DNA of 64,000 bases from Mobula hypostoma (lineage: Eukaryota): contig NC_086097.1 in the NCBI RefSeq assembly GCF_963921235.1, positions 127,598,001-127,662,000 on the forward strand, read 5' to 3'. The position numbers and the translations under genes were made by a program. This document shows positions 5,222-40,622 of this stretch, in pieces; position 1 is the first letter of the stretch; each line of letters opens with the position of its first letter. The notes beneath the pieces were generated by a model. That model had not been told where the DNA came from. It worked only from the letters and a program-made list of their open reading frames with translations, and made no database searches.

Positions 5222-5915
5222 TCACAAACATGAGGAAATCTGCAGATGCTAGAATTTCAAGCAACACACATAAAAATTGCTGGTGAACGCAGCAGTCCAG
5301 GCAGTTTCTCTAGGAAGAGGTACAGTCAACGTTACGGGCCGAGACCCTTCATCAGGACTAACTGAAGGAAGAGCTAGTAAGAGATTTGTAAGTGGGAGGG
5401 GGATGAGGAGATCCAAAATGATAGGAGAAGACAGGAGGGGGAGGGATGGAGCCAAGAGCTGGACAGGTGATTGGCAAAGGGGATATGAGAGGACCATGGG
5501 ACAGGAGGCCCAGGGATAAGGAAAAGGGGGAGTGGGGGAAAACCCAGAGGATGGGCAAGGGGTATAGTCAGAGGGACAGAGGGAGAAAAGAGAGAGTGAG
5601 AGAAAGAATGTGTGTATATAAATAAATAACGGATGGGGTACGAGGGGGAGGTGGGGCATTAGCGGAAGTTAGAGAAGTCAATGTTCATGCCATCATGTTG
5701 GAGGCTACCCAGACAGAATATAAGGTGTTGTTCCTCCAACCTGAGTGTGGCTTCATCTTTACAATAGAGGAGGCCGTGGATAGACATGTCAGAATAGGAA
5801 TGGGATGTGGAATTAAAATGTGTGGCCACTGGGAGATCCTGCTTTCTCTGGCGGACAGAGCGTAGATGTTCAGCGAAACGATCTCCCAGTCTGCATCGGG
5901 TCTCTCCAATATATA
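5222..5915 (-). mobile_element. Penelope-like retroelement 3' portion: GIY-YIG endonuclease C-terminus + pseudo-LTR
   Basis: ORF 5659-5961 reads VYIGETRCRLGDRFAEHL...PVATHFN...EATLRLEEQHLIFCLGSLQHDGMN, with the YIG, R, H, E and N of GIY-YIG. A pyrimidine-rich tract and a hammerhead-bearing tail follow. Confidence 0.9.
5324..5359 (-). ncRNA. Minimal type-I hammerhead ribozyme motif (one core substitution)
   Basis: Minus strand reads AGUC-CUGAUGA-A-GGG(UCUCGG)CCC-GUAA-CG-UU-GACU. Stems I and II are intact. GAAA is changed to GUAA. Confidence 0.75.
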
Positions 5916-8900
5916 CATCTACATCTCCTCTACATCTCAGAGCTCTGCAATTTCTCACCAAAATGTGCTTTCTATTTAATTTTCTTTACAAAATAGGCAA
6001 CTTTACATTTTCCCACTTTGAACCCTATTTGACAAGTTTTTGCTTTCTCAGTCCATAGCCCTTTGCACCACCTTATGTCGTCTCACAGCTTTCTTTCCCA
6101 CCTTTGCGTCAACAGCAAATTCAGCAACTATGGATTGAGTGACTCCACTAATTATCATCAAGTTAGGTATTTCTCGTCCCATGTAGCTTTAATCACATAT
6201 TCTCTGCTTTCTGACTGTTCAAAATCTTGTGGAGTATAGCAGGTGGAGTCCACTTGTAACCTGAGAGAGGATGTGACAGGTGTTTAGAGTCATGAAGGGT
6301 ACAGTAGACATTGGAAATTGTTTGCACAGGGATTGAAGTTAATTGGGAAAAGAACCAAAAGTGGTGTGAAGTTTCTTTTGACACCATGAAAGTTTAGGAT
6401 CTGGGTGACTGCAGTGGAGACAGATTTATCGGTAGTATTTAAAAGGGAGCTGAAAGGAAATAACCCTTAGGGCTATGGGCAAAGGGTATATAGAGAAACA
6501 AGCTTCATCACCATTAACAGGTTAAATGGCCTCTTTGTGATTTTGTGATATCTTCTGGGATGGGACCTTTATGAAGCAGTAACAAGAATGCATTCTCTTT
6601 TATTTATATACTGCCTGTCACAACCTGAGCACTCCCCAATTCTCTTTATTGTAAACAGAGTTCTCTTTGAAGAGCGGTCAGTTAATGCACAACAGGGTCC
6701 CACCAATAAAAGTATGGCAGTGACTAGATTAATGTTGGACTAATGAGGGTCAACATGGTTTAGTGGGCCGAAAGGCCAGTTTCAGTGCTGTATCTTTTTT
6801 TGATTACTGACCCAAAGTGCCAGCATGGATTATGTCCTCAAATCTCTGGCCTGAGGTTTGAAGAACAGACAGGACCTGGAGAAGTTGAGGTTATGAATGG
6901 GTCCATGCTGTGTTGTAGTTAACACAGCATGTTACCTGGGTACAATCCTGACCTCTGTGTAGAGTCTGCAGGTTTATGCATAGATTTCACTTGGTTTCTT
7001 TAGACAACACAAGGACATTGGTTGGACATTGCAAATTGCTGCTGGTGTGGTAGAATCTGGAGGGAAATGATTAGGAATGTGTGGAGAATAAAATGGGATT
7101 AATGAAGGATTGAGGAAAAATGAGGGCTTTATGGTCAATGTGGTCTTAATCCTGTTTCTGTACTCTGTGGTTCTGAGCCATTATAAATATCTCTTTGTTC
7201 CTCGGGCTAGCTTTGGTGTGGTGGTAACAGATCCTGGAGTGAGTCAGCTTTGGTGAGACAGCAGCCCAAGAGAGAGCAGATTAGAATGAAGTATGATGAA
7301 ATCTTCCTACTTAAAGCTACAGTTTTACAATGTTCCTGGCAGAAATCTAGAGATGCTAAAAATTCTTTGAACCAATGCAACATCAGGAATCATATTGCTG
7401 GAAAATGCAGGATCTTAATGGAGAATCTGGATGGATTGTACATCACTCCCAAACACCTCTTTACCTTCCACACTCCTGGATGGTCACATCATTCTTTTTT
7501 CCTTGTTAAAAGGTATAGCTTTATGACACAGCGTCTACATTGAGTGCATCCAGGGAATTCAGATATTCAATATAATCACAGAGAAGATGCATTATCTAAC
7601 TCCATGCTGAAATGGGAGGCACTCCATAATACACTGTCACTTCCATTTACCTGTTATTTGCTCTGTGTACCTTCTTTGTTATTTTACCCAAGACTGTTTC
7701 TGAAACACTGACTGAGATGCTTCAGAAGGCTTCTCTGGTGAAGCTTGTGCCATATTCTATTGAATGCTGGTGGATTTTTTTGTGCCATATCAAAAGGCAC
7801 TACACACCACCCAATAGCCCCCAGCCATCTTTCTGATTTACGATGTCTTTAACAAAGACACCGGTGGATAAAGGGTCAACACTCCACCGTTGGTGTCGTT
7901 GCTATTCAAGAAGGAGAGGGGAGGAATGGTATACTAAGACACTGAGACTTACCAGGGTAATTTCAAGCCTTGTGAGTCGATGGTTCCTTTATCAATATGT
8001 AAATCTTATTATATCACAGCTTAAATGAGTCACAGTTCAGAGAGGAAAGAAGGGAGAAACAAAGGAAAACAAGAAAGAGAAAACGAAATATGTTTTTCAT
8101 GAAGTATCATTCAACCATTGTTGCACAGGAAATTTGCGCATAGGAAGATTCCATAAGCATCAAAATGATAATATCCTAGATTTTCTTTTTGTTGCATTGG
8201 TTATGAGAGAAATATAAAGAATGCTCGTATCTAAGCAGCACTTGACACATCTGTAGGAACCATGGAATGATCTGACAGATAATGAAGCATTACTGAAGTG
8301 TAGACCGTTTTAGTATGGAACATGCTGCAGCCAATTAGCACACAACAAACTTTCACAGTTTTAATTGGCAGTTTTCTTATTTTAAGACTATGATCCCAAG
8401 CTCTACATTCTGCCTGAGGAAATAGCCTTTCAGCATCTAACTTGTAACATCTCTCAGCATTACATATTGCCTAATAAGCACTTCAAATTCTTACAAACAC
8501 CCAAATAACTTTAGCTCACATGTAATCTTGTGTACTTGCAGATTGCCAACACTTTTCTATCTCCCTTTAGGAATGAAGAACAAGAATGCAGGTAATGACT
8601 CAAATGACAAAATTTCCCTGCCATCTTGCAAGACTTCCTTGCTTATATACTCCAAATTCCTTACACAGAAACGCGAGCACTAAACACCTTCCAAAAAGCG
8701 TGCAGGACATACATGTTTACAGTCTGCATCTAATAAATCTGCAAACTGAAACTATTCAATGCAACATTATTTACAGATTTTCTCAAATAAAAAATAATTC
8801 TATTTATTATTTCTTCCTAACAAATTGCCAAGCTTTATTCTCCATTTGCCATTTTGTTGTGTTCCCTTCAAAGTTGACTTAAACAACGAGCCTTGATTTA

Positions 8901-11689: not shown

Positions 11690-12150
11690 TGTCAGGACAC
11701 TGGAGCAGGGATCCAATTGCAGACCCAGTACTGTGCACACAGTGATATTAATTGAGTAACAAATCCCAAGGTGCAAACAAAGTCAGCGTCAAAGTTCAGG
11801 TAGAGATCAAAACATTCAGAGAAATCTGAAAACCAGAATTGGGAAACAGGCAGAGTTGATATTCAGATGGACAGAGTGCAGATACAAATGCTGGAAAGGC
11901 TCAGGAAAATTCACTGGCACAATCTGGCAACAAACAGGTGAAAACACAGGACTAAACTACACTGAGCATAAACAGAGAGGCAGATGATAGGTGGAGGACA
12001 ATGAGACACAGGTGGCAGCAATGCAAAACCACAGACTGATGGCTAGGGGGGAAACACACAAAACGACAAAGTTCAGCTGGAGGTACTGAAATAAACATAG
12101 TAAATGGGCAACACAGAATACAAAGCAGATGGAGAACAAATACAGTACAT
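11690..12150 (-). mobile_element. Probable Gypsy-type LTR remnant
   Basis: Begins TGTCAGGAC on the plus strand, and its motif layout (GGATCCAATTGCAGAC, CAGGCAGAG repeats, CAGGTG repeats) resembles fish Gypsy LTRs. Right end and TSD not resolved. Confidence 0.4.
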
Positions 12151-13530
12151 GGCTCCTACATTGACCTTTGAGGTACTGTATCCACCTTTAGAGAATATCA
12201 CCAGCTAGCTTCAGTGCAGTTATGTATGTTGACAACACAGGACTTACTGCCCTTGACTACAGGGCCTTGACGCTGGTGACCAGCTTCAGTAGAACATTAC
12301 AATTTGCTCCACAGTCACACTGAAATGTCAAGGTTACTCTTACATAGGCATCTTAGAAGAGATACTTCTACTGTGCCAGGTACAGAATTGGACCTGCAAG
12401 GCTCACCTCCAGAGACTTCGTAAGGAAGTAGAAACATTTTTGAAAGATCATGGAACTGACGGCTGTCAGAACCAGCACAGAGGAGGAGTTGAGGCTTGGG
12501 GTAGTTCAGTCATGGCTATATTGAATGATGCAGCAGACTTGGTAGTTTGCCCCTATTTTCTTAAGTTCTCGTGTTTCATTTTTAAGCTGGTTGCAATCAC
12601 TGTTCCACCTAAACTCTGTGGGTGCATGGCCACACAGTAACTGAAATGCTCCTGTGCACATTGCCTTTCTGGCCACAAAGCTGGAATTTTCTTTTATAAA
12701 ATTTTAATATAATTTTGAAATCTATATAAATATGATTGTGTAATTAATTATGCATGAATGAATATGATCCATTAATTTTCTAAATAATAAATGTACCATA
12801 ACCTTTACTTTGAGACGTTTTAGAGCTTCAAATTATTTACATTGTTAATGTTTCAAGTTACAACACCATTACAAACTGTAACAATAAACACAGAATGGAA
12901 GTCGGTAGCTCATTGTTAATAAACTGCCAATGCAATCTAGTCAAAACATTTTACTTTTGCCATTGTGCCTGTCAGTTGTTTTGACTACTTGAATCATTTA
13001 CTTGTATTGTGAGTTGTGGTTTGTGAAAAATTCCATATTCTGATATTTTTGGTAATCTTTCAAAAAAACACATTATCTAATAAGATTTTTTAAATTAAAA
13101 AATTGTTAGAACGAAGTAAAATTCATTTCTATAAAATTGTTTGCATGACTGTGGTTATTTTATTAAATTTTCAATTTATCTTGCTAAATTTTTCAAATAA
13201 TAGTAGCTATTACTTTTACTATCCTAAGGATGGTGAAAAGAAAAGCAGAAAAAAGTTAAATGCTTTGAAGAACAAAGGTTTCACAAAATTTAAGGTAGAA
13301 TGAATTGCTTTTGCAACTTGTAGATACTGAACTACTGTCTTTGCATCAATCACAAAAAAATAAAAGTTGGTGATATTTTTTACATACAGAGATACTGGTG
13401 ATGTTGTATGCACCATTTGTGCTAAAGTTGTGGTGTGTCAGTAGTGAAAATATGAGAAAAATGGAAGTTAGATTACTCAGAACAACTTTTAACCAACGAA
13501 TTCATGTAGATACTGTTTCCAAATTATGCA

Positions 13531-15202
13531 TCCAGTAGAAGATCCTGACAACTACACCTGCAAAAAGTTCATCCAGCTGCAGCTTCCAAAAATCCATGTT
13601 AAGGAGTTGGAGCTGGAGCTGGATGAACTCCAGATCATTTGAGAGGCTGAAGGCGTGATAGATAAGACATGTAGAGAGGTAGTTACTCCCAAGGTACAGG
13701 GTATAGGAAACTGGGTGCCAGTCAGGAAGGGGAAAGGAGTTAAGGAGCCAGTTCAGAGTACCCCTGTGGCCATCCCCCTCAACAACAGGTTTGTCACTTT
13801 GGATACTGTTGGAGGGGTTGGCTTAACAGAGGAAGATCACAGTGGTCGGGACTCTGGCACTGAGCCTGCTTCTGTGACTTAGAAGGGAGGTGGAGGGGGT
13901 GAGGGGAAGAGGCATGTGGTGGTGATAGGAGATGCATTAGTTAGGGGAGCAAACAGGAGGCTATGTGGGTGAGAACAAGACTCCTGGATGGTACGTTGTC
14001 TCCCAATTGCCAGAGTCCGGGATATCTTGGATTGAGTCCTCAACATTCTTAAGTGGGAGGGTGAACAACCAGAAGTCATGATCCATGTAGGAACCAACGA
14101 CATGGGAAGGACAAGTGATGAGGTTGTGGACAGGGAGTTAGGTGCGAAGATGAAGGGCAGGACCTCCAGGGTTGTGATCTCAGGATTGCTACCTGTGTCA
14201 CATGCTAGTGAGACCAGAACTAGGAAGATTATGCAGTTTAATATGTGGCTAAGGAGTTGGTGTAGGAAGGAGGGCATAAGGTTTTTGGATCATTGGGCTC
14301 TCTTCTTGGGAAGGTGGGACCTGTACAGAAGGGATGGTTTGCATCTGAACTGTAGGGGGGACTAATATCCTACTGGGAGGGTTTGTTATCGCTGCATGGT
14401 GGGGTTTAAACTAAAGTTGCAGGCGAATGGGAACTAGAGTGCCAGAACTGTAGTGAGGAGAGACTGTTGATTACACAAAATTGCTGTCAACAGGATGACT
14501 TGGAGTATTGTGAGCAGTTTTGTGGCCCTTATATTAGAAAGGACGTGCTGAAACTGAAGAAGATTCACATGTGTTTCACAAAAATAATTCCAGGATTGAA
14601 TGGTTTGTCATATGAAGAGTACTTGTGTTCACTACAACTCAGAAGAATGAGGGGTGACCTCCTTGAAGCCTATCAAATGGTGAAAGGCCTTGATAGAGTG
14701 GATGTGGAGCGAATGCTTCCTATGGTGGGAAAATCTAAGACCAGAGGACACAGCCTCAGAATAGAGGGAAGCACACACAAAATGCTGGAGGAACTCAGCA
14801 GGCCAGGCAGCATCTACTTTTTTCCATAGATGATGCCTGGCCTGCTGAGTTCCTCCAGCAATTTGTGTGTGTGTGTTGCTTGGATTTCCAGCATCTGCAG
14901 ATTTTCTCTTGTTCAGAATAGGGAGGCATCCTTCTAGAACAGAGGTGAAGGAGGAATTTCTTTAGCCAAAGAGAGATGAATATGTGGAATTCTTTGCCAC
15001 AGGCTGCTATGGAGGCCATATCTTTATGTATATTTAAGGCAGAGTTTGATAGATTCTTGATTGTTCAGGGCACGAAGGGATATGGGAGCAGGCAGGAGAT
15101 TGGGGCTGAGAGGAAAATTGGATCAGCTGTGAGGAAATGGTGGAGCAGAATCAATGGGCCCAATGGCCTAATTCTACTCCTATACCTTATGGTCTTATGG
15201 TC
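13531..15202 (+). mobile_element. CR1 LINE, internally deleted (ORF1 esterase fused to ORF2 3' end)
   Basis: ORF1 SGNH-esterase motifs VIGD, HVGTNDMGR and DGLHLN. Jumps at ~14495 to LEYCEQF and RRMRGDL. Ends in the CTTATGGT repeat tail. Confidence 0.85.
14769..14912. mobile_element. Fold-back Penelope pseudo-LTR mini-insertion
   Basis: 45-bp inverted arms at 14772-14816 and 14827-14871. Flanked by duplicated TCAGAATAG (14756-14764 / 14913-14921) inside CR1. Confidence 0.75.
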
Positions 15203-16820
15203 AAAATGTGGAAGTTTGCACATGTTAACTGAATGTCCAAAAGAGTGTTAAGCAAGTGTGAAACTAGATGCCTGAAAGAAGTCAGCCCTGGTCTGGTCAA
15301 AGTGGTAATTGATAAACAGGTTATGAAAGAGCTGCGCAAATCTGCTTTCCAAACATTAATTGCTGATGAAAGTACAGACATTTCTGTACAGAAAATGTTA
15401 ATGTATTTTAAGTTTCGACTGGAAAATGAAACTTCCTATAAGACTATGCTTGTAGGTGTTTTGAAACTACTACATGAAACAGTCTCACTATTGTTGAAGC
15501 AATAAAAAATTATATCAACTACAGTCTTTATATTCAAAAGATGGTGATGTTTACATCAGACTGGACAAATGTTATGCTTGGAAAGTGGCAGCAATTCTTC
15601 CATGAGAAATAAAACATCTGTCTGAGCAACAATGTGTTGCACACAGAGAAGACTTAGGATTAGATGACACAAGGTATCAATTATGCAGGATATCGAAACA
15701 CTGCTACGACAGTGTACACACCATTCAGCAGGTCATCGATTAAAAAAGGAGAGCTAGATGAATTAGCTAATGTCACAGAATGCAATGTTGTGTCAGTCAT
15801 ATCACTAAACAAAGTAAGATAGCTGCCAGTACATTTTGCCGTTAACTGCTTTAATGAGGAATTATGAAGTTTTGATCCAGTATTGCAAGAACAAGTTAAC
15901 GAATGCAACAATCTAATCAGCAACTACTGCCTGAAGATTTTGACCAAATCACAATATCGAGCACCATTAACTGTCCTTAGCAATGTTTTAGAACATCTGG
16001 CATCTCTTTGTAAATTCCTTCAGAAAAGCAGCTTCAATACCATTGAGACATTGCGGTATGCAAAACCAAGAATGAATAAGTTACAATCACAGTCTCTTGG
16101 TGATACCCTTTTTGGAGTGACAATGTAAAAGATCTGCTTGTATCTTTAAGTTCTGATATCGACACTGCGCCTAATATTCAATTCATTCAATGTGTATGTA
16201 ATCACCTGGGTAATAGATTTCCTGATGATGAGTTAAGAAATGGTAAGCTTTGGAGCCGGTTGCTATTGCAAACACAACCTATTTTCAATTTGTAAAGAGA
16301 ACGTTGTACAGAATAATACTCAGGTGCAAACAATGATGGAAGTGTTGCCTCAAAAATATTGCAGCAGGACTGTGATTTCAAACTTGTCGCTCTGTGAAAG
16401 GTAAGACTGGTTCACTTAAGATGTTCACTCTTAATTTGAACTACATGCTTAGAAATGAAGAGTTTGAAGAACTGTCAATTCTGGTAAACATCATTGGAAC
16501 ATTTAAAGCTTCTAATGCTGACTGCAAATGTGGATTCGGTCTTATGAATTCATTCGAATGTAAATCCAGAAATAGACCAGAGGCAGAACATTTGGTTGAT
16601 CTACTGAGGATTAAGACATATCTTTCATGTGGGTGTGAAATTAATCTAGATAGTGTTCGTAGACAATGGATTTGTAACAAAGACAGACAAGAAAAAATTT
16701 ACAAAATGTGAATGATTTTCTTTGCTGTACTGTATTTCATTATGTCTTTTAATTAATAAATAACATCAAAAGTATGTGTATTTTCAATTTTTATTCTCAA
16801 TATTCATAGTACACATATTA

Positions 16821-17108
16821 CGGAGAGGGAGAATGCTGCCCAGGCTTTCTGCGTTTTGGTTGTGGACTTTTTTTCAGATTTGTGGATTTTTTGTATTCTG
16901 TGTTTGTCTCCCAATCTTTCTCTTGTTTTTCTATGTGGGGGATGGGGATTAGGGAGTCAATGTTTCATTTTTGTTTGCTTTTTTTGTGCGGGGAGGAGGG
17001 ATTTGGGGGTTGATGATTGTGCTGCCGTTCTTTACTTTCTTGGTTTCATGGCTATCTGGAGAAGAAGAGTTTCAGAGTTGTATACTTTGATAATAAATGA
17101 ACCTTTGA
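16821..17108 (+). mobile_element. Non-coding retroposon with Rex1-like 3' tail
   Basis: T/G-rich body. The tail GCTATCTGGAGAAGA...TCAGAGTTGTATA...TTGATAATAAATGAACCTTTGA is shared with 37827-38148 and resembles the Rex tail at ~10545-10618. Confidence 0.6.
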
Positions 17109-17959
17109 CAAAACAAAAACATTTAAAGTGGCACACAGTTTTCATGCTGTGTCAAAATTTCCTGCTCACAGCAATGGTTGGTCACACAGCTGTAAAAAAA
17201 TTAGAGGGAACATTGGTTGCAATGTATTAGTAATACATATAATATAATCTACTGTGCCTCATTTGAGGGCTTTATGGCATGCATCAAATTTTTTCTTAAT
17301 GAGTTACAATAAAATCTTTACCTCCATCACTCTAGTTGATCTCCTACAGCCAGCTGAATAAATATTTATTATTATTTAGCAATACAATGCAGAGTTGGCC
17401 TTTTCAGCTCTTCAAACCACGTTGCCCCAGCAGCCCCAGATAAACCTGATTAACGTTAACTAAACATAGGACAATATACCGTTCCAAGAATCACCCCTTG
17501 TAATAATGAACAATGAGGTATAGAGTATCTGTATTTACTGATAAGTAACTTAATTATTGTCTCAACTAAAAAGCACGTGGGTTCACAATCTGACTACTTG
17601 TGTGCACCCTACTAAAATTTTCTTATGCTCCATGAGCAGGCAATGAAGAGAAAAGTTATTACCCGGGAAAGGAGTCTACACTGGCCAAGCATCCCTCGCG
17701 GTCCCGATCTCCACGTGTCTGTGGGGTCCTCCTAATCCGCGATGGTTGCTGAAGAGCTATTGCCCCTGAGTATTCAGAGCTCCTGACTCTTATAGTGTTC
17801 CTCATCAATTGAACCATTGGATCGCCATCCCATTGGGTCACCTGACCAACCTGGGTCACCTTCTTCTACCTGGATACAGAGCTACAACCAACATAGTTTC
17901 ATGACTCTGCCCACCCTAGTTTTGTATATTTGTATCTCTTAGCTCTGACTCTCCAAACT

Positions 17960-18082
17960 GGTACATGGAACTTAGAAAAATAGAGTGCTATGGGTAATCC
18001 TAGGTAACTTCTAAAGTAAGTACATGTTCGGCACAGCAATGTGGGCCAAAGGGCCTGTATTGTGCAGTAGGTTTTCTATGTT
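17960..18082 (+). mobile_element. Short CR1 3'-end insertion
   Basis: Tail TGGGCCAAAGGGCCTGTATTGTGC...TTCTATGTT. TSD TCCAAAC (17952-17958 / 18083-18089). Confidence 0.7.
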
Positions 18083-18196
18083 TCCAAACCAGTTAAATGA
18101 GGCAACCCAGACAGAGTCTAATGAGATTACAGATTGCTTCTTTGTTAGGTCTGGCATTTTACATGCTAAGTAGCTACTCATCCGAGGATAGTCTCA

Positions 18197-19103
18197 GGCT
18201 ACGTCCACACTAGACCAGGTAAATCCATAACCGAAGCTTTTTCTCTTCATTTTGACCCTCTGTCCACACTGAAACGGTGTTTTCCTCCCCCGAAAATGGA
18301 GATTTTCTTAAACGTCCTCCAGAGTGTGTAAATTTGAAAACACCGGTTGTGCAGAGCAGTGTGGACGGGGTAAATGGATATTTTAAAAAACGCTGTCATG
18401 ATGTGCCGGAACAGATGGCGGCAGTGCAGCATTTCATTGTTTTCTTGAATGCAACCCCCCCCGCCACACAACCTAACAATTTCAGAACAGACGGCAACGA
18501 GACTGAAGCCAGAAGAGCTAGAAATGTACTCACCAAATACTTTGACCCATAGCTTACTGAATAAATAAGTATACTCACTTTGTCCTGTTTTCTGTCCTTG
18601 CTTGTATGAAGGTGGTTTACCTATTTATGCAAGTACTTCTCCGACAATAGATGTGTAACAGCCTAATGTAACGTTGTATGGAAATACAAGATAACACTGA
18701 TGCAGACATGTTTTATACATTTAACAAGGTGCTTTATTAATACAACAGAGTTAGTTGGTTTTCAATGTTCGTCGTCAGTCGGGTCATACTGTCCGTGAAC
18801 GCCCTGTCGGCTGCCTCCATACGCTTCGGTATTTGTTTTTTTTTAGTTTTAAGTCCTCCTGCACGAGACCCAATAGTAATTCCTTTTAAGTTTTTCTAGT
18901 TTGTATCTGGACAAACGCGCACCAAGTATACCGTTTCCTCTTTGCTTGTTTTCTGTGTGTCCTGCACATGCCCAGTAGGAGGAGATTCGCCCAAACATCT
19001 GTCCTAATGTGGACAGAGATATTTTTAAAAATGCTGGTGTGGACGTTTTTACACAAAACCGGCATTTTCAAAATTATCCGGTCTATCTAGTGTGGACGTA
19101 GCC
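18197..19103. mobile_element. Non-autonomous DNA transposon (MITE), PIF/Harbinger-like
   Basis: Perfect TIR GGCTACGTCCACACTAGA / TCTAGTGTGGACGTAGCC, repeated subterminal GTCCACAC/GTGGAC motifs, 3-bp flanks TCA/TCC, no transposase ORF. Confidence 0.85.
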
Positions 19104-20607
19104 TCCGATTTAGCAGGTCATTACCTGTAGTTCCTTGTGTCCACATTCAATTGTTCTGATTAGGTTGTCCCAGAGCAAGAATCAGCTCAGAGTCCACAAG
19201 ATGGGGAGAAACAAAGACAACTGGTTTGTCTGCTTCCCCTGTCCTCAATTAAACTGTAGTTTCTTCTGGCCAACATTACAATGACCAACTAACCAACCTG
19301 TTGCATCTTTGTACTGTGGGAGGACGTAGAGAGACTCCTTACAGAATGGTGCCGGAATTGAACTCTGAACCCTGGAATACTCCAAGATGTAGAAGCATAT
19401 GCTAACCGCAATGCTACCGTGGCACCTATGTGCGAACTCCGAGCTTTATTGTTTCCAGTTATAGATGGGGTACCTGACTGAGAATTCAGCAGCTTCATTA
19501 TCCGTCTTAGCTAAATAACACAATTTGCATATCCAATTATTCTCTTAATAGGATAATAATTATTATCTAATAGCTTCACATCTGGTACTTGATAATTAAG
19601 ATTCAGTCACTGGATTCTAAACAACTGGAGCTTCTAATACCATGTCAAGAAGCTGGAAAAAATTCACAGGAAACATTTAATCTTGTGCAACAGTTCTTAA
19701 AGTAGTGTAGCTTTAGAACAGCTTTGATTTGTTTCCTTAATTTCACATATATTATAATAATAAGTCCCAATCTTACAAGCACTGTGGCTCATAAAACAAA
19801 ACTATGTACTTCTGCCAAAACTGTACACAATTCAATGCTCAATTAAATATTAAAAAATCAATTAAATTTTAACAGCCACATATTTGACATAAATATATGC
19901 TTGTAGGTTGTGAAATTTTTGTGGAATTATGGCAATAGATGAATTTTTAATTACTACATCTCCTATCTCAAGAAACTGATAAAATGCATTCTTAATCTCC
20001 AGAGTCAGATTAGCTTCTAACAATAAATCTTGAATTTGGTGAAGTAAAAATCTAAACGCTCTGATAAAATATTCAAATACAAATCAAATCTGACCATACT
20101 GTACAGTTTGACAATAGTGTCACTGAATTATTTCATACCATTAATTCTTTAACATGTTGTATTACATTATGCTTATTAACTAGGCAAATATTACTGCATC
20201 ACTTTTCTCCATTTTAGTCTTTAGAATGCAGGACTGATCCATATGGTCTGCTTTGACTTTAAAGTCCCATCCTTGTCTTCACTGCTTCTTTTCCCAGTTG
20301 AACCTCTCCCCACACTCTTGATTTCTATGCTCATCCAGTTCTGGTCTCTCTTTCATCCTGGATCTCCTTTCCTCGGCTTTTGGTGGACCCATTTCCTGGA
20401 ACTTGCTTCCTGTTGTTCTCAACCTTTCTTTTCTTTTAAAATAACTCTTAAAACCTTTTTTTTTCAATCAGCCTGCCCATATTTCCCTTCATGCAACACA
20501 GTGCCAAATTGTGCTTGGTTATTGCTCCTCTGAGGTGCCTCTGAAAATGTTACTACATTGAGGATGGCAGTTGTTATACAGTCTAAACTTGGACATGAGC
20601 ACAATAA

Positions 20608-20800
20608 TGGCCACCCTCAGGGTGGAGGAGTAATACCTTATATTATGTCTGGGTAGCTTCCAACCTGATAGCATGAACATCGATTTCTCTTTCCAGTAAA
20701 ATAACTCCCTCCTTCCTTCCTCTATTCTGCACTCTGACCTTTTATTTCTCAGCTGCCTATTACTCTCCCTGGGACCCTTCCTCCTTCCCTTTATCCTGTT
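20608..20800 (+). mobile_element. Penelope-like GIY-YIG C-terminal fragment (probably resumes at 21138-21180)
   Basis: ATLRVEE*YLILCLGSFQPDSMNIDFS is homologous to 5659-5760. A pyrimidine tract follows. Confidence 0.75.
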
Positions 20801-20802
20801 GT

Positions 20803-21137
20803 CTATTGTTACCATCAGGCCACTGCCTTGTTCTCATTGTTACCATCAGGCAGGAGGTACAGAAATCTGAAGGCACACACTCAACAATTTAGGAACAGCT
20901 TTTTCCCCTCTGCCATTTGATTCCTAAAAGGACATTGAACGTATGAACACTGACTCACTTTTTTAATATATATTATTTCTGTTTTTGCACGATTTTCAAC
21001 CTATTCAATATGCATATACTGTAATTGATTGATTGATTTATTATTTTTTTCTATACTATGTATTGCATTGAACTGCTGCTGCTAAGTTAACAAATTTCAT
21101 GACACATGCTGGTGATAATAAACCTGATTCTGATTCC
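20803..21137 (+). mobile_element. Rex1/Babar 3' end/UTR fragment
   Basis: CCATCAGGCAGGAGGTACAGA (PSGRRYR) and tail GATAATAAACCTGATTCTGATTC. A 16-bp 5' duplication ATTGTTACCATCAGGC is present. Confidence 0.7.
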
Positions 21138-21213
21138 GGTTATCACCTCCCAGCTAGCCCCCTTCCCCTCCAGCCTCCTCTTTGTGTGTGGCTCTCCAAG
21201 CTGGCTTGTTAGC

Positions 21214-21257
21214 TTGCAGACGTTTCGTTACCCAGCTATGCAACGTCATCAGTGCAA
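21214..21257 (-). ncRNA. Minimal type-I hammerhead ribozyme, intact core
   Basis: Minus strand reads UUGCA-CUGAUGA-C-GUUGC(AUAGCUGG)GUAAC-GAAA-CG-UC^UGCAA: 5-bp stem I, 5-bp stem II, palindromic ACGU stem-III loop, GUC cleavage triplet. Confidence 0.85.
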
Positions 21258-21314
21258 CTTTGAATTAAATGTTGGTGATCTACATTGTTCGCCTTTTATG
21301 TGACCTGTGGTTAG

Positions 21315-21354
<40 letters not shown>

Positions 21355-21501
21355 CACGTGGGATGGGGGGGGGGAAGTATATGTGCCATTTCTATTGATT
21401 ATTGAGTATATAAACCGCAATTGGCTGATTAAAATCCGATTAGGTGACTAATCACAGGACACATAAAAGACGAACAATGTAGATCAACATCTCATTCGAA
21501 G

Positions 21502-21545
21502 TTGCACTGATGACGTTGCCTAGCTGGGTTTCGAAACGTCTGCAA
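21502..21545 (+). ncRNA. Minimal type-I hammerhead ribozyme, intact core with weakened stem II
   Basis: UUGCA-CUGAUGA-C-GUUGCCU(AGCU)GGGUUUC-GAAA-CG-UC^UGCAA. Predicted cleavage after 21540. Stem II has two U-U mismatches. Confidence 0.8.
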
Positions 21546-22839
21546 GCTAACAAGCCAGCTCAATGAGCTGCTCAATAACAACATTCTCAACCCGAGCTAC
21601 AAATCTTTTCCAACATCTTAAAGAAGTACTGTATGCTCGGTATTTGTCATATTGCATGGGGTCGAACAGCGAAGAGGAAGAAATGAAGGAGGGAGGCAAT
21701 GATAATCTTCAAAAGTAAATACGGAAAGCAGGGCTTTTTGTAAGATTATTCAGACATTGTGAAAAGATCAACACACACAAAATGCTGGAGGGACTCAGCA
21801 GGTCAGGCAGCATCTATGGAAATAAATAAACGAATTGAATGAATAAATGAATTGCGAAAAGATACTTTAAGCATTCATCAGAGATATTGGCACACTTACA
21901 GTATGTTCTTTATGTATAAAAGAGAGCCTTGGTGTAGGACCACTGATCAGTAATTATAGAACCATTTTGATATAAGCATTCTTCAGATAAATGTACTGAA
22001 GAGAAAAACACAACTTACCGCTTGGCTTAACAGCCCTGATGGAAATAATGAAAAAAAAGCTCACATATAAATCTTTAGTAAAATTGTAATGTTTCTTTCT
22101 ATTAAATATGCATCTGCAGCTTGCCTGTATGATTTTGTTCTACCTCAAGTGTGAAATATATCTGCTATAAGCTAAATTAAAAGTACATTTGTGGCTGTAC
22201 AGTAAAATGATCATGATAATGAAATGTCACATCTGAATCTTACAAAACAGTCAGGAATCCATTTGTGCAAATGTCGCTTTTGAACCTTGTTGGAGGAAAG
22301 AGAATGTGGTTCTCTGTTTTGGTGCACAGAGACTGACAAATGTGCTTTTAGAGAAAATAAAAGTGTGTATTTACATAGCAACTTTACCAATCTCAGTGAA
22401 TGTGGTCAATGTTGCCATACTGTAGATATAGGTTCCCACTACCTCTTCCACTTCTGAGTCCACCATCCCCCGGCTTCCCCAGATGAGCAATTGGAGGCAA
22501 GCTTCTGGGCTCAGAAGACTGGGGAACAAATGTTGTCCTGACCTCATGAACACTGGACTTTAACTGGATCCCTCTAGCCATCCCAACCAATAGAAGTGTG
22601 AGATCACCCCAGAGACTCAAGAGACCGCGGACGCTAGAATTTGCAACAACTGATCTGGAGCAACTCAATAGGTCAAGCAGCTTCTGTAGGAGAAAGAATT
22701 GTCAACGTTTCAGGCCAAAACCCTGTATCAGGATAATTTCAGCACAATTTGAAATCAGCCTGGGTGCTTGGTATTTGGCCATGATTTGATCTTCTCAGAC
22801 AATCCTTTACATAATGAGCAAATGCAAAGTTGTCCAGTC

Positions 22840-23348
22840 ATAAACAAGAGAAGATCTGCAGATGCTGGAAGTCCAAGCAACACACACAGAATGCTGGAGG
22901 AACTCACCAGGCCAGGCAGTATCTATGGACAAGAGTACAGTTGATGTTTTAGGCTGAGACCCTTCAGCAGGACTGGAGAATAAAAAGATGAGGTGTAGAT
23001 TTAAGAGGTGTGGAGAGGGGAGGGAGAAACACAAGGCGATAGGCAAAACTGGGGGGAGGGAGGGGTGAAGTAAAGAGCTGGGAAGTTGATTGGTGAAAGA
23101 GATACAGGGCTGAAGAAAGGGGAGTGTGATAGGAGAGGACTGAAGGCCATTGAAGAAAGAAAAGGGGGGAGGAACACCAGAGGGAGGTGATGGGCAGGCA
23201 AGAAGATAAGGTGAGAGAGCGAAAATGGGATGGGGAATGGTGAAGGAGAGGTGGGGGGCATTACCAGAAGTTCGAAAAATTGACGTTCATGCCATCAGGT
23301 TGGAGGCCACCCATATGGAATGTAAGGTATTGTTCCTTCAACCTGAGT
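22840..23348 (-). mobile_element. Penelope-like 3' fragment (GIY-YIG end + pseudo-LTR, decayed hammerhead at 22938-22975)
   Basis: Colinear with 5222-5750, including GGCATTAC...GTTCATGCCATCAGGTTGGAGG...AACCTGAGTG. Confidence 0.85.
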
Positions 23349-27182: not shown

Positions 27183-29585
27183 AAACATAGAAAAATAGAA
27201 ACATAGAAAATAGGTGCAGGAGTAGGCCATTCGGCCCTTCGAGCCTGCACCGCCATTTATTATGATCATGGCTGATCCTCCAACTCAGAACCCCGCCCCA
27301 GCCTTCCCTCCATACCCCCTGACCCCCGTAGCCACAAGGGCCATATCTAACTCCCTCTTAAATATAGCCAATGAACTGGCCTCAACTGTTTCCCGTGGCA
27401 GAGAATTCCACAGATTCACCACTCTCTGTGTGAAGAAGTTTTTCCTAATCTCGGTCCTAAAAGGCTTCCCCTCTATCCTCAAACTGTGGCCCCTCGTTCT
27501 GGACTTCCCCAAGATCGGGAACAATCTTCCTGCATCTAGCCTGTCCAATCCCTTTAGGATCTTATATGTTTCAATCAGATGCCCCCTCAATCTTCTAAAT
27601 TCCAACGAGTACAAGCCCAGTTCATCCAGTCTTTCTTCATATGAAAGTCCTGCCATCCCAGGAATCAATCTGGTGAACCTTCTTTGTACTCCCTCTAAGG
27701 CAAGGATGTCTTTCCTCAGATTAGGGGACCAAAACTGCACACAATACTCCAGGTGTGGTCTCACCAAGGCCTTGTACAACTGCAGTAGTACCTCCCTGCT
27801 CCTGTACTCGAATCCTCTCGCTATAAATGCCAGCATACCATTCGCCTTTTTCACCGCCTGCTGTACCTGCATGCCCACTTTCAATGACTGGTGTATAATG
27901 ACACCCAGGTCTCATTGCACCTCCCCTTTTCCTAATCGGCCACCATTCAGATAATAATCTGTTTTCCTATTTTTGCCACCAAAGTGGATAACTTCACATT
28001 TACCCACATTAAATTGCATCTGCCATGAATTTGCCCACTCACCCAACCTTTCCAAGTCACCCTGCATCCTCTTAGCATCCTCCTCACAGCTAACACTGCC
28101 ACCCAGCTTCGTGTCATCCGCAAACTTGGAGATGCTGCATTTAATTCCCTCATCCAAGTCATTAATATATATTGTAAACAACTGGGGTCCCAGCACTGAG
28201 CCTTGCGGTACCCCACTAGTCACCGCCTGCCATTCTGAAAAGGTCCCGTTTATTCCCACTCTTTGCTTCCTGTCTGCTAACCAATTCTCCACCCACACCA
28301 ATACCTTACCCCCAATACCATGTGCTTTAAGTTTGCACACTAATCTCCTGTGTGGGACCTTGTCAAAAGCCTTTTGAAAATCCAAATATACCACATCCAC
28401 TGGTTCTCCCCTATCCACTCTACTAGTTACATCCTCAAAAAATTCTATGAGATTCGTCAGAAATGATTTTCCTTTCACAAATCCATGCTGACTTTGTCCG
28501 ATCATTTCACCGCTTTCCAAATGTGCTGTTATCACATCCTTGATAACTGACTCCAGCAGTTTCCCCACCACCGACGTTAGGCTAACCGGTCTATAATTCC
28601 TCGGTTTCTCTCTCCCTCCTTTTTTAAAAAGTGGGGTTACATTAGCCACCCTCCAATCCTCAGGAACTAGTCCAGAATCTAACGAGTTTTGAAAAATTAT
28701 CACTAATGCATCCACTATTTCTTGGGCTACTTCCTTAAGCACTCTAGGATGCAGACCATCTGGCCCTGGGGATTTATCTGCCTTCAATCCCTTCAATTTA
28801 CCTAACACCACTTCCCTACTAACATGTATTTCGCTCAGTTCCTCCATCTCACTGGACCCTCTGTCCCCTACTATTTCTGGAAGATTATTTATGTCCTCCT
28901 TAGTGAAGACAGAACCAAAGTAATTATTCAATTGGTCTGCCATGTCCTTGCTCCCCATAATCAATTCACCTGTTTCTGTCTGCAGGGGACCTACATTTGT
29001 CTTTACCAGTCTTTTCCTTTTTACATATCTATAAAAGCTTTTACAGTCTGTTTTTATGTTCCCTGCCAGTTTTCTCTCATTATCTTTTTTCCCCTTCCTA
29101 ATTAAGCCCTTTGTCCTCCTCTGCTGAACTCTGAATTTCTCCCAGTCCTCAGGTGAGCCACTTTCTCTGGCTAATTTGTATGCTTCTTCTTTGGAGTTGA
29201 TACTATCCCTAATTTGTCTTGTCAGCCACGGGTGCACTACCTTCCTTGATTTATTCTTTTGCCAAACTGGGATGAACAATTGTTGTAGTTCATCCATGCA
29301 ACCTTTAAATGCTTGCCATTGCATATCCACCGTCAATCCTTGAAGTGTCATTTGCCAGTCTATCTTAGCTAATTCACGTCTCATACCTTCAAAGTTACCC
29401 CTCTTTAAGTTCAGAACCTTTGTTTCTGAATTAACTATGTCACCCTCCATCTTAATGAAGAATTCCACCATATTATGGTCACTCTTACCCAAGGGGCCTC
29501 TCACGACAAGATTGCTAATTAACCCTTCCTCATTGCTCAAAACCCAGTCCAGAATAGCCTGCTCTCTGGTTGGTTCCTCGACATG
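27183..29585 (-). mobile_element. Young 5'-truncated CR1 LINE (EN C-terminus, complete RT, 3' UTR, (TTTCTATG)-type tail)
   Basis: ORFs 27912-29597 and 27285-27884 are in the same frame and separated by one TGA. Motifs SDH, PGPDG, QHGF, DFQKAFD, GVPQGSVLGP and KFADD are intact. Confidence 0.95.
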
Positions 29586-29899
29586 TAGATCAATCAATCA
29601 ATTATAGTTGATCAATCAATTGGGATATTTGTGTACTCAGGCAGTCAGTCCTCATAGTATTAATTTTGGATGTCCGGGATTTCAGTCCCCAGAAGCTTTT
29701 AGACCATCTGCGTGAATAACTTGTCCCAGCAAAGATGTCCGAAAAATGTCACATGCAGAAAATGTCAACTTATAGCCAAACAATATAAATGTTAGAAAGC
29801 ATTGGGGGTTGTTAGGAGTGACAAGGAGAATGACAGAAAGATGGAGAGACAGAAAGAAGAATTAAAATTCATTCCTCAGCCTTCAGTTTCTGTGACGTA

Positions 29900-34720: not shown

Positions 34721-37700
34721 ATCAGACAGAAGTATCTTGCGATCTCTGACATTAAAGCCCTCTTCTGTATCTTTATGCTATTCCTACTCTAGTTTTATCA
34801 TCATTGCAAACACCAAAAGCAATATTAAGCAAGTAGTAATAGAGACAGGTTTGCTTTAATTGGTAAGGAAATAACTGCAGATGATGGAATTTTGAAATAA
34901 AAACGGGAGATACTCAGCAGGTCAGGAAGCATCTGATGGGTAGAAGCAGATTGTTCTGAAACACTATTTCTGTTTCTCCCTCGCTGGTGTTGTCTGACTT
35001 CAGTATCCCAGAATTCCTGTTTGCTCTCTGTTGGTTACACCATCGAACCAATGGATAATATCTACCGTGGTTGAATGGAACTCCAGCATATTGAAGCCAA
35101 ACATGTCCAATTTCTCCTTTAGCCAGATGATTGTTGATTCACTCATGGCACTGTGCTACCCTGACAGGCAGCCATCAGGACAAGAAAAGTGCCTTCTCCA
35201 ATGCCCTTCATTATTTACAATTAATTGTACCCTCCCTCCTTTCCTTAAACATGCAGCATGGAACTGACCTTTAAATGATAGAGATGGACAACTGGATTTC
35301 TCCAAGGTAAAAATGCCTGCACTACAGGCCTCATACCTGTACATTTGGATGTCTTGTTTAGTTCCATAAAGATAGTAAAGGGAGGCCCCTGCTTCCTTCT
35401 GAACAAGGCAAGCATCACCTCTTTTGGTGAATTGTAATATTGCAGGAACTAGGTACACGGTTTGCTCTACTTAAAGATTGCTTCGGACTGATATGGTTAG
35501 GAAGTTCAACTTTTGGTAACCTTCCTGACCTTTATTGTTTGGCTTTTCTTTCAGCTAGAGGCTCAGTTTTCAATGTGCTCCTCAAAACTGCCTGCCCACA
35601 TCATCCCCACCCTCCTCCCAACCTCCCTTCACTCTTCACTTTCATAGAAAGTTAGGCATTATGACAAAGTATCAGGTTACAGGACACTAGGAAGCTGGAA
35701 AGCCTCCCAAGAACTCCCTTGAGAGGCTAGCCTGCTCCTTGGAGACTGGTGTGATAGAGTTCTATTGCATGCCTGAGAACACCTTTGTTTCCCCGTTGAC
35801 TCCAGGCCGGAATGCTGCTTGGTTTAAGTAGAGTGTGATGTTGCTCTGGTAAGTGAATGACGTGCTTGTAATTTGTAAATAGAAATTCCATTAGTAAACT
35901 TTTAAATTCTTTTATACTTTGCTCCGTTGTATCATCTTGCTTTTAGATTCAAATGTTTTAATATTTCTGAGTTCAGACTGTTCTTTAAAGACATTACTTC
36001 TTTCTCAGTGATGACATCACTGTTCCTGCACTTGTACTGTTTTATGTTCTATGTTCTATCAGACCATTTTAATAAATTACATTTCAAAAAATCAGTGTCT
36101 GCTCATCTTGAGTTAATAGGAGGACAGGGATCAGAAGAAGAGAGGAAATTATGAAATTGGGTTACAATGGTAGCTCTATGAGGAGAAATGCTGCCACATT
36201 CAAATTTGGGGCTGGCCATTTATAGTTCTAAGATTAGCGGGAGACAATCATTTAAAGCCTCGGGTGTGTCTGGAAAGGTTCTCTCAGAAGATGGTGAATC
36301 TCTGGAACTTTCTAAATTGCAAGATTATGGAGTTTAAATCACTGAGAGGACTTGTAGAGGAATTAAGTAAATCTTTATAGGTCAGGAAATTGAAGGGTTA
36401 GGGACCAGGAACTGAAGAAAAGTGAGACCCAGGGCAGATGAGCTGTGATCATATTGAGTGGTAGATCAGGTCTGATGGGCAGAGTGGCCTACTTCTACTC
36501 CCATTTTCTTGTGTCCTTATAACATTAAAAGTTCTAATGTGATTCATGACCTTTGAACTAGCTAATTAATCAGAGTCAGGACCATAAATTATCAATCTGT
36601 AACCAACTACTGATTATTTGGAGTCATGGTGCAGTTAGGATGTGGACGCTTGTGGATAGCTCACTCGACAGAGTCCAGTTGAAAAGCAGCAGGTTTAATT
36701 GGACTGAAGAACATGAAGATAGAAAGCAGAGTGCATAGAGCTGTGATTTGTAACTTCAAAAACTAATCGAAAGAAAAATATGGAAGCCAGGGATAAATGT
36801 GTCTAATCTCCTCAACTGATTGAAGTGTTGTCTCCAGATGACATCTGATGCAATCTCCACTGTGTTGGAGAATGGTCCAGTTCTGCCTTAATCGTTCCAA
36901 GCACCCTCTTTTAATCATCTCGGTAGTCTCTCGCCAGGACTGTTTGTCCAGGAGTGAAACATCAAGCCTCCTTGTTTGAGGAGCCTTCAATTTATCTCTG
37001 CTGTTTGTCCTGTCTACTCCTTCTGAGATTGAGTTTGAGGAGATCCAAACATGTGTGCAGGGGATGACCCAGGCACAGCATAGCTGGGAAGTTATTGGCT
37101 GTGGAGTGGGCTGCATTGCGATAAACAAGGAGGAAATTTGTCAGCTCCTGATTCGGTGTTAGGATAGTGTGTTCTGCTGACATTGCTTGCAGTGCAGATT
37201 TCAGACTCTGGATAAACCTTTCCACCAATCCATTTGTTGCCAGGTGACATGGTGCAGATGTAATATGTCTTATCCTATTTATTTTCAGGAATGACTGAAA
37301 GTGTTCCACGGCAAGCTGTGGCCCACTGTCACTGACTAAGTGTTGTGGCAAAATCCTCTGTTAGGGCAATGGAGGCCAGCAATAGGGATGGAGAGGCACT
37401 GTGCTTGGCACATGATGGCATTCCTAACGGCGCATGGCAATCTGCTTGATTTGCTGATCTATCCTAGGCCACCAGACAAAGCTTTGGGCCAATGCTTTCA
37501 TTTTGACCACGCCTACAGGAACGGCATGAAGCTCCTCCAAAATTCTAGATCTCAGCTTGCAAGGTACAACTCTCAGTCCCCGCATAAAAAAAACCCTTGT
37601 CAAGGACAAGTTCATACCAGCGCTGATAAAGATGGGGAAACTGCAATTTCTGCTGCACGTTCCAGCCATTTTGGGTAGTCATGTAGACCTGAAACAGTGT

Positions 37701-37826
37701 GGGGTCTTTTCTTGTTCCCTTTTGGATCATCTGCCATAATAGTGAGACTTCCGATTTGCATTAGGGAGAATACATCAAGTGTCCTCTTTTGTAAATGTTT
37801 CAGATATTTCCTTTTCCAAGGGTTAA

Positions 37827-38148
37827 TCAAAGGTTCATTTATTATCAAGGCATATATCCATATACAACTCTGAAATTTGTCTTCTCCAGATAGCTGCAAA
37901 ACAAAGAAAGAATAGGAAAATAGTTCAGAGACAAACATGAAACCCTGCACAAAAAAGAATAACATCTTGATCATCAACCCACCAAACCCCCTTCTCCCAC
38001 ACAAAAGCAGAATAAGAATGCCGGCCCCCCAAAAAACAACCCCTCCCCCCCACAAAAAAACTAACAGAACAACAACCCCCCAAACACCCTCCTCTCACAC
38101 AACAAAATGGAAAGGAACAGGCAAAAAAAAACACATAACATAAAATCA
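37827..38148 (-). mobile_element. Non-coding retroposon with Rex1-like tail, inserted in Gypsy RNase H
   Basis: Same tail as 16821-17108. Interrupts the HGN.DGLS|LPLE-like segment of pol. Confidence 0.65.
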
Positions 38149-40622
38149 TAATGAGATAATCCATCACCATTTCCATGATAAGTTATCCTTTTCAATTTGA
38201 TCTTGTAATTGTGTCCTCCAAGAAGCAGCCCATCTCTGTATTTGTGCTGTTGTTAGTGGAACACCCTTCAGTAGATTGCAAATGGACACTATTGGTTGAT
38301 TATTCAGTAATGAGGATAAACTCCCTCCCATACAGGTACTGGTTAAAATGTTTTACACCCCAAATCAGACTCAAGGCCCCACTATCAATCTGTGCATAAT
38401 TTTTCTCTGCAGCAGTAAGGGATCATGATGCAAAGTCTAAGGGCTGTTCACTTCCATCACCTGTATCATAATGTGAGGTACACAGGCAAGCTTCAGTGGG
38501 CGATAGGGATTATAAAGTGTGAGTACAGTGTCTTTTGTCACCATTTCCTTTACCATTTCGAAATCCACCTCACACTTCTCTGTCCATTGCCATTTCTTCC
38601 CAATCTGTAGTAATGAGTTCAAGGTGTGGAGCACAGTAACATCCAGGTATGGCAGGAATCTGTTACGGTAATTGACAAATCCGAAAAAGGACCACACCTT
38701 TGACATGTCCTTTGACGTTGGGCATCCGCTATTGTTTGAATTTACTTTGCGTTTCAATGGTGTGACCATAGTAAATGATGCTTGGTTTAAAGAATTCACA
38801 CTTATTGCATTGTACCCCGAGCCCAAATCTTCGAATCTTTTTGACATTGTCTTGAGATTTTGGGGATGTTCCTTGTCGTCCTCACCAGAAACTAGTTACT
38901 GGTGAGGATGACAAGGAGCATCTTAGCTACTGGTGCTGGAGTGCAGGTGCAGATGCTACTCGAAAAATAAACCTTTTATAGTGATAAAGCCTTTTGAGTG
39001 TGTTTATAGTGAGAAGCACCTTGGACTCTTGTTGCTTCTCCATCCCAGCTAAGTCCACTTTGTTGAAGTATTTTCCTTCACAAAGGTTTGCCAAGATATC
39101 CCCTATCCAGGGCAGAGGGTATTAATCTACTTTCACTACTGGGTTGATGGTGATCTTATGATTACCACAGATCATGACAGACACATTCTTCTTGGCTCCT
39201 ATGGCCACTGGCATTGCCCATGGGCTCCACTCAGACTTGGAAAGAATTGGTCAGCCTCCAAGCAATCTAGCTAATGGCTACTTTATCACAGCTGGTATAA
39301 GGAACCGGATGGGCTTTGTAAAATTTGGGTGTGGCATTTTCATTTAACACTATTTTACCCATGACGTGCTTGAGTTTTGCTAGAATGTTGCTGTGGTTTC
39401 ATCCAGTACCTTTCTTAATTCACTCTCAGTTGACTCTGTTGCAGGGGATGAGGCAGGCAAATGGTGGATGGATCTCCAATGAAGTGGCAGTTGTTTCAGC
39501 CAATCATGTCCCCTCAGTGCTGACCCTCTTGTTTTTAGAACATACATGCCCAATGTAGCCTGTTGGTTCTTTAATTTCATTGTTACAAATGTCATTCCCA
39601 CAGGAGTTATTTTTTTCTCCAGTATAAGTTCTTGCTTGGATATCTGCAGGGTTTAGTTCAATATCTTTGAAATGCCTTTCAGACTCATTTTGTGGAATGA
39701 CTGAAACCGCCAAGCCAGTGTCCAGTATTCCATTTTAATTAATTTGCTATTCATTTCTGGTGGAAGCCATATTGCTTTTCTCTTATTAGTTTTCACATTG
39801 TAAATTGCAAGGCTACCTCGTCCTTTGTCACTCTCATCATTATCAGATTTTTCATTGACAGCATGAAAATTAGTGTTCAATTTGAAACTTTTTCTCTTTC
39901 CTATGTAGTCCATTTTTTATCTGCTGAATGTGCTCTTTGTATGTGTCCTGCTCTGTTGCATATTCTGCTAGTTTCAGCTATAAACCTGTATCGATCTGAT
40001 GTATGAGAGCGCCTGCCACAACGGCAACATAATTTGTTCAGCCGGGCAGGCTTCTGTTTAGAGATTTCTATTTTGTTCACGCTCACTTTCATTCCAGGTT
40101 GCAACTCAATTGCACCTCTCGCTGCAGTTTCCATTGATATAGTGATTTCAACTGTTCTTTTAAATGTGAGTTGTTCTTCAATTAGGAACAATTTTTCTTG
40201 TAAGATTCCAGAAACTAAATGATTTCTTAGTGCATCATTAAGCCCATTACTGAACTGACAATGCTTGGAGAATTTCTTGCGTTCAGCCATGTAAGCTGAA
40301 ATGGACTGCCCTTCCTTTTGATTTTCGTTATGAATTCTAAAGTTTTCAGCAATTAACAATGGTTTTGGTCCTAAATGTTTTTGTATTGCTTTCATAATAT
40401 CAGCAAAGCTCATCTTGGCTGGTTTGGTTGGAGCAGTTAAACTTTTAAACAAATGGTATGTCTTTCCATCAACTGTACTCAGCAAAACTGACACTCACTT
40501 GTACATTGCTATTTCACTTGCTTCAAAATACTGCTGAAGTCATTCAGTATACATCACCCAGTCATCTGCTGTTCAGACGAACACAATTACTGTATCTTTC
40601 CAATGTAGCTAGACATTTCTGC

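Follow-up and report, generated by a model that had tools for sequence, protein, structure and literature searches.

Back-to-back minimal hammerhead motifs in the Mobula hypostoma genome: a probable relic of a single Penelope/Poseidon-type insertion

Two minimal hammerhead ribozyme motifs, one on each strand, are carried by the arms of a fold-back element in Mobula hypostoma (contig NC_086097.1), within a stretch of 64,000 nucleotides that is referred to here as the window. The arrangement raises the question of whether the pair is a working device, a small mobile element in its own right, or the remains of something larger. A preliminary description had proposed either an ORF-less, ribozyme-bearing retroelement or the relic of a Penelope-like element (PLE) insertion, and had added that transcripts starting in a central spacer would expose a ribozyme in either direction while read-through RNA would mask it, as a possible conditional switch. 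The analysis presented here indicates that the locus is very probably a single old Penelope/Poseidon-type insertion, composed of two 5'-truncated copies of the element's 3' end, one inverted and one direct, likely laid down by two priming events and likely inert.

The two arms (21199-21316 and 21446-21560) are inverted repeats with 89.8% identity over 118 columns, and they differ by nine substitutions and one 3-nt indel. Each carries the complete minimal core in type-I order (CUGANGA / GAAA / UH). The pattern CTGAYGA-N8-38-GAAACGTC has two exact matches in the 64-kb window, one per strand, at 21507-21540 (+) and 21252-21219 (-), and none in 100 shuffles. In the right motif stem I is formed by 21502-21506 with 21541-21545, C3 is 21507, A9 is 21513, stem II occupies 21515-21532, G12 is 21533 and C17 is 21540; the left motif mirrors this layout from 21257 down to 21214. 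The hallmarks of the minimal class are also present, namely an extra C (21514) between A9 and position 10.1, the pair G21515-C21532, and the palindrome ACGU (15.2-16.2). Stem I, core, palindrome and predicted cut sites (Table 1) had all been correctly placed in the preliminary description.

Table 1. Features of the insertion (window coordinates)
Feature	Position	Strand	Remark
Inverted copy	21452 to ~21190	-	BLAST against natural family copies; outer limit approximate (21185-21199)
Left minimal type-I hammerhead motif	21214..21257	-	Predicted cut between 21219 and 21218
Internal (CA)n tract and C-run of the family, in expanded form	21318..21374	-	(GT)n and G10 on the + strand
Element 3' UTR segment (remainder of the "spacer"), containing TATATAAA at 21407-21414	21377..21452	-	
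Head-to-head inversion junction; short microhomology, palindrome GATTAG-GTGA-CTAATC	21438..21453	.	
Direct copy, truncated at its 5' end (about -70 to +107), with a tailed end of the long type	21446..21620	+	
Right minimal type-I hammerhead motif	21502..21545	+	Predicted cut after 21540
Likely remnant of the ORF's first 36 codons, from hammerhead A9	21513..21620	+	
"Tail" of ~36 nt, direct arm only	21585..21620	+	Family end histogram

An Rfam search, which had been recommended as a check, returned no hammerhead family, whether the whole window was searched at E<=1 or the region at E<=10; its snoRNA, scaRNA, miRNA and psbJ matches were rejected, with scores far under the gathering threshold. 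Because Rfam gave no match, the ribozyme call rests on the motif as read against published features of PLE minimal hammerheads (PMC4209133). As set out in the relevant portion of that paper, these include an extra nucleotide before G10.1, a G10.1-C11.1 pair and a palindromic remnant of helix III, with a helix I of 4-5 bp and a helix II of 7-8 bp. The locus shares all three hallmarks and has a helix I of 5 bp, and family-typical copies have a helix II of 7 bp. It also shares the placement on opposite strands: dual minimal motifs some 100-700 bp apart were reported in 2014 (PMC4209133), and the core starts here are 255 bp apart. It differs in that the published opposite-strand examples, in the same portion of the paper, come from Schistosoma, and that both helix II stems are mutated. 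Core and hallmarks together support the earlier reading of a Penelope-like pLTR minimal hammerhead.

Stem II is damaged in both motifs. A single C-to-A change in the left motif reduces the helix to 5 bp, and an AA-to-TT change at 21530-21531 disrupts its base in the right motif, so that helix II measures 4 and 5 bp at the locus against 7 bp in a family-typical copy. The corresponding hairpins are predicted at -2.6 and -2.5 kcal/mol, versus -6.7 in the family-typical copy. Three of the nine arm substitutions (21520, 21530 and 21531) lie in stem II, and none is compensatory. It is true, as had been pointed out, that no arm difference falls in the core or stem I, but the chance probability of such an outcome is about 0.08.

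The 129-bp segment between the arms, which had been taken for a separate spacer, is instead the upstream continuation of the left arm on the same strand, and consists of 3' UTR sequence of the family. In other family copies the sequence at 21377-21452 is found upstream of the arm and in the orientation of the left arm (84-86% identity to the six best-matching copies shown), and a CA tract occupies the position of the (GT)n and G-run in most of them. The (GT)n (21318-21347), the G10 run (21365-21374) and the TATA-type motif TATATAAA are all present as first described. The last is a mutation private to this copy; it is found in none of 57 distinct homologous segments, 32 of which read TATGTAAT, and the promoter that had been postulated in the spacer is therefore unsupported.

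With positions counted from the putative start codon (21513), the inverted piece covers roughly -166 to +60 and its direct partner roughly -70 to +107, with the two arm alignments overlapping by a few bases at 21446-21452. The putative start codon reads ACG here, and the frame has two stops. No target-site duplication (TSD) was found at this locus (score 3), and a search of 12000-21210, up to 9 kb upstream, for a displaced duplication or a missing left end gave chance-level matches only; on the left, the element stops short against a fragment of another repeat. With arms and "spacer" both recognizable as family sequence, the earlier suggestion of a PLE insertion relic is borne out.

The parent family is widespread in the genome. 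The right arm has at least 251 first-look candidates in 3.48 Gb, and among the 40 that were scored, the others are 82-89% identical to it. Longer copies lead upstream into a GIY-YIG-type endonuclease (EN) and then into reverse transcriptase (RT) coding remnants; the EN motif (YKIPC..C..HYIGQTG) occurs in L015, L027, L030, L037 and L044, and RT motifs (GTPMGSP, VDDTF) in L073, L081 and L083. Ten places reach the RT core; none was seen extending further, and no full-length parent was found. Pfam gave no relevant match to three short EN/RT fragments searched alone. Among 44 candidates, the EN fragment of L030 matches 23 proteins, of which the best has 56% identity and an RVT_1 domain; the named matches are from bamboo sharks and flukes. 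By these comparisons (P0001-P0023) the family EN is about equally close to fluke PLE proteins (42-54% identity) and shark proteins (52-56%), which might reflect horizontal transfer or slow evolution. One of the matched proteins, P0002, bears the annotation of a MAP3K7 isoform from shark and includes the EN fragment, through either exonisation or an annotation artefact.

An extra Zn-finger motif in the RT-EN linker is described as a trait of Neptune and Nematis in the pertinent section of PMC8557442. The linker in the present family (L060, L069, L073) and in proteins P0001 and P0004, inspected by eye with no profile, carries no such motif and therefore would place the family in the Penelope/Poseidon clade; the coding remnants thus point to a Penelope/Poseidon-type PLE. 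As in EN+ PLEs, RT is followed by a C-terminal GIY-YIG domain upstream of the pLTR in other family copies, an arrangement that is absent from the studied copy. The 36-codon N-terminal frame from 21513 is stop-free in 14 of 30 long arms. The putative ORF is placed as in the anole element Poseidon_Ac (PAc), where the reading frame opens at stem II and the two reverse-transcription start sites, in the portion of the study consulted, bracket the tail (Frangieh et al. 2024, PMC11167929); unlike in PAc, neither an intact ORF nor a partial-tandem master copy was found here.

The family is distinct, as had been supposed, from the nearby GIY-YIG copy at 5659-5985, which has 32% identity to the family EN over 38 aa. 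GIY-YIG-like fragments of that other PLE family occur at 5659-5985 (-), 20609-20797, 23274-23347 and 54434-54626. Several further repeats in the window deserve mention. The sequence at 21769-21831 is the end of a far more abundant repeat, with a second copy at 22878-22929; contig ends from this repeat continue into a different hammerhead-like motif, and it probably represents a second PLE family that is truncated immediately ahead of its ribozyme. A 67-bp near-perfect hairpin at 14788-14857, with sub-threshold Rfam psbJ and miRNA matches, belongs to the same high-copy repeat and is possibly a tiny fold-back insertion of that family. Two adjacent long stop-free frames of 561 and 208 aa at 27285-29597 (-) presumably derive from a fairly young LINE reverse transcriptase, and broken gag- and pol-like fragments at 36992-40494 (-) have what we take to be the look of an LTR retrotransposon.

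The head-to-head layout is by no means peculiar to this locus. When 89 family loci were merged to 65 sites and examined with 1.5-kb flanks, 93 distinct 3' ends were recovered, which fall into two main classes: 48 lie at +100 to +107 (39 of them at +107) and 40 at +56 to +75 (14 at +66 and 10 at +71), with five elsewhere. Divergent head-to-head pairs account for 22 of the 65 sites, each with one long end (~+107) and one short end (~+66-71). One other site has an internal deletion in the short arm, two are more strongly rearranged, and 39 show a single end within the flanks. Among the 65 sites there is no long+long, short+short or tail-to-tail (convergent) pair and no true direct tandem, the apparently direct entry at L062 having been rejected as a split alignment. 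One long end is favoured in the first 30 loci, since these were picked with a query that held the long end. Junction positions differ at each tabulated locus, and spans range from 128 to 2130 bp. EN coding sequence is reached by many of the arms, while the start of some direct arms lies past the hammerhead (e.g., at +17, +18, +51 and +53), from which it follows that two ribozymes are not needed for the layout. At L031, L035, L038, L045, L060 and L083 the direct arm is nearly tail only (+17 to +53), leaving fold-backs with one hammerhead. An extra inverted internal piece between the arms at L004, L007, L012, L055 and L060 suggests further template switches during insertion.

Target-site duplications accompany the layout. 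A duplication score of at least 8 was obtained at 16 of 25 multi-arm sites, compared with 1% of 600 mismatched flank pairs. Many duplications, as judged by eye and with no statistical test, reach 1-5 bases into the short arm, a hint that priming is assisted by microhomology; the anole in vitro study reported no homology at initiation (PMC11167929). The inverted 5' copy, a one-sided tail of 30-40 bp and junction palindromes are typical of PLEs according to the sections consulted of two papers (Craig et al. 2021, PMC8557442; Arkhipova et al. 2013, PMC3846280). The insertion unit of EN+ elements described there resembles the present locus in its inverted 5'-truncated copy at the 5' end, its one-ended tail and its junction palindrome, and resembles other sites of the family in the TSD around the unit, which the studied copy lacks. 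It differs in that the studied copy is so truncated that no coding body lies between the arms.

Two priming events are inferred because the outer ends are fixed, with one of each kind per pair, while the junctions vary and the duplication surrounds the whole unit. The account that we tentatively favour, and would put at somewhat short of an even chance, is a two-site twin priming in which the target is cut in a staggered fashion and its two strands use different fixed start sites on the RNA. The endonuclease would nick both target strands about 10-15 bp apart; one nick would prime reverse transcription at about +107 of the element RNA and the other at about +71. Both cDNAs would extend upstream and terminate early, their 3' ends would anneal via a few bases of microhomology (here 21446-21452), and each would complete the second strand of its partner. 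Two hammerheads would be present only because both cDNAs chanced to pass the motif. The left outer end and its duplication would likely have been lost by a later deletion or by loss of target site at insertion. In the anole system both target strands are nicked and extended, and PAc is predicted to be a dimer (PMC11167929). The wording "twin priming" is absent from the PLE literature that was searched, the examined portion of PMC3846280 included; subscription journals were thinly covered, and the idea may be published.

An inversion made by self-priming fold-back of a single cDNA or antisense template, at the palindrome now seen at the junction, appears unlikely. A route of this kind has been proposed for head-to-head PLE inversions (PMC3846280, in part), and the locus does have a small palindrome at the expected place; however, joining by microhomology also leaves such a palindrome. 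At the studied locus the short-ended arm extends farther upstream than its partner, which nevertheless runs 36 nt farther downstream, to +107, and the same relation is seen at L002, L006, L018, L035, L038, L071, L075 and L089. Because a fold-back copy never exceeds the end of its template, a short-ended arm cannot have templated its partner's tail.

The preliminary description's other proposal was an ORF-less element. In its fuller form, a non-autonomous element resembling a retrozyme or MITE and mobile as an arm-spacer-arm unit, it would predict what is in part observed: head-to-head pairs do recur, and duplications flank the entire unit. The junction, however, is common to no two tabulated loci, many arms reach EN coding sequence, and the family has coding relatives; a mobile unit of this kind can therefore be set aside as highly improbable. 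Animal non-LTR retrozymes (Li, Clavereau and Pollet, bioRxiv 10.64898/2026.07.22.740005, in part) are likewise PLE-derived, non-coding and equipped with a type-I hammerhead, but they are head-to-tail, same-strand tandem repeats, a layout found at 0 of 65 sites, whereas the studied locus is head-to-head on opposite strands.

Whether the motif has been kept or is decaying was assessed on 42 arms from loci L001-L030 (30 long and 12 short), with non-spanning arms such as the short arm of L012 excluded. Within the motif, 48 of 168 CpG cells carry a change; outside it the figure is 115 of 394. Core and palindrome are intact in 13 of the 42 arms, and both arms are intact at one of the 12 two-arm loci, the studied one, where the expectation is about 1.15. 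A separate pattern search found GAAACGTC retained in 11 of 29 matches. Non-CpG changes are less frequent in the motif (66/1386) than in the rest of the arm (219/3047; p=0.002), and when the 13 columns whose variants are shared by at least four arms are left out, the figures are 55/1554 and 112/2443 (p=0.12). The lower non-CpG rate may reflect selection among source elements or BLAST ascertainment, and less probably weak constraint. Arms of one locus are no more alike (0.872, 12 pairs; 0.873 at the studied locus) than arms of different loci (0.866, 849 pairs), on which ground gene conversion between arms was rejected; the best match of the left arm (0.934) belongs to another locus. Of the earlier proposition that a unique layout with cores decaying as fast as flanks would mark a one-off neutral relic, the decay is largely observed, but the layout is recurrent; conversely, the arm-spacer-arm arrangement does recur across the genome with duplications, but with a different junction at every tabulated locus.

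A DNA run from a second organism yields contigs that span both flank junctions and the inversion junction; the insertion is shared and therefore older than the split of the two. The contig covering 21533-21794 has nine differences, of which five are listed in the 174-nt flank, leaving about four in the 88-nt part of the element.

There remains the proposed regulatory function. In read-through RNA from either strand the two arms are predicted to pair with each other; that of the plus strand folds into a predicted hairpin of -228.6 kcal/mol (z -19.7), in which the hammerhead fold has a probability of about 1e-50, and to this extent the suggestion that read-through hides the motif is upheld. The constrained monomer hammerhead fold has a probability of 1e-5 to 1e-9 at the locus and 1.5e-5 in an intact family copy, a comparison that does not discriminate between them and leaves the read-through figure as the informative one. 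Cleavage by minimal hammerheads in dimeric form was reportedly described by Lunse et al. 2017. A dimer in cis is impossible within one transcript of this locus because the motifs are on opposite strands. Single minimal hammerheads showed no cleavage in vitro, by the account consulted in PMC4209133, and the anole PLE hammerhead required the element's protein, with RNA-seq giving no cleaved ends (PMC11167929). With one sense motif per transcript and inactive monomers, the masking comes with any insertion of this kind. Two putative RNA runs list no locus-specific contig, although contigs cannot show absence and this is not counted as evidence; depth was zero on the unique flank 21648-21749, and one run, X21, gave a contig of 242 nt that belongs to a different copy of the family and shows 13 differences.

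A co-opted regulatory element, in which a central bidirectional promoter would send out transcripts that expose the ribozymes while read-through masks them, or which would serve as a source of dsRNA or small RNA, must accordingly be judged a very long shot. The intact cores, stems I and palindromes of both arms, the very stable hairpin and the presence of the insertion in a second organism are what such an element would call for. Against it, both stem II helices carry uncompensated damage, TATATAAA is private to the studied copy, the arms have not been homogenised, double intactness is at chance level, CpG decay of the motif equals that of its flanks, the monomers of this class are inactive in vitro and the anole hammerhead is protein-dependent, and the second-organism contig has its differences in the element part also. 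The locus is likely a decaying fossil rather than a switch.

It is important to emphasize that the back-to-back hammerhead layout is common in this genome and has already been published (PMC4209133, in the portion cited above). The locus itself is of little weight, since its architecture is known and many other copies are decaying in the same way; PLE insertion routinely produces twin ribozymes on opposite strands, and a functional explanation is unnecessary. The pairing of long and short ends, the variable junctions and the duplications do bear on the formation of inverted pLTRs and tails, and the pattern across the family yields predictions that are testable in the published anole in vitro system. 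If true, twin priming would tie the start sites observed in vitro in 2024 to the long-unexplained tail and inversion of these elements.
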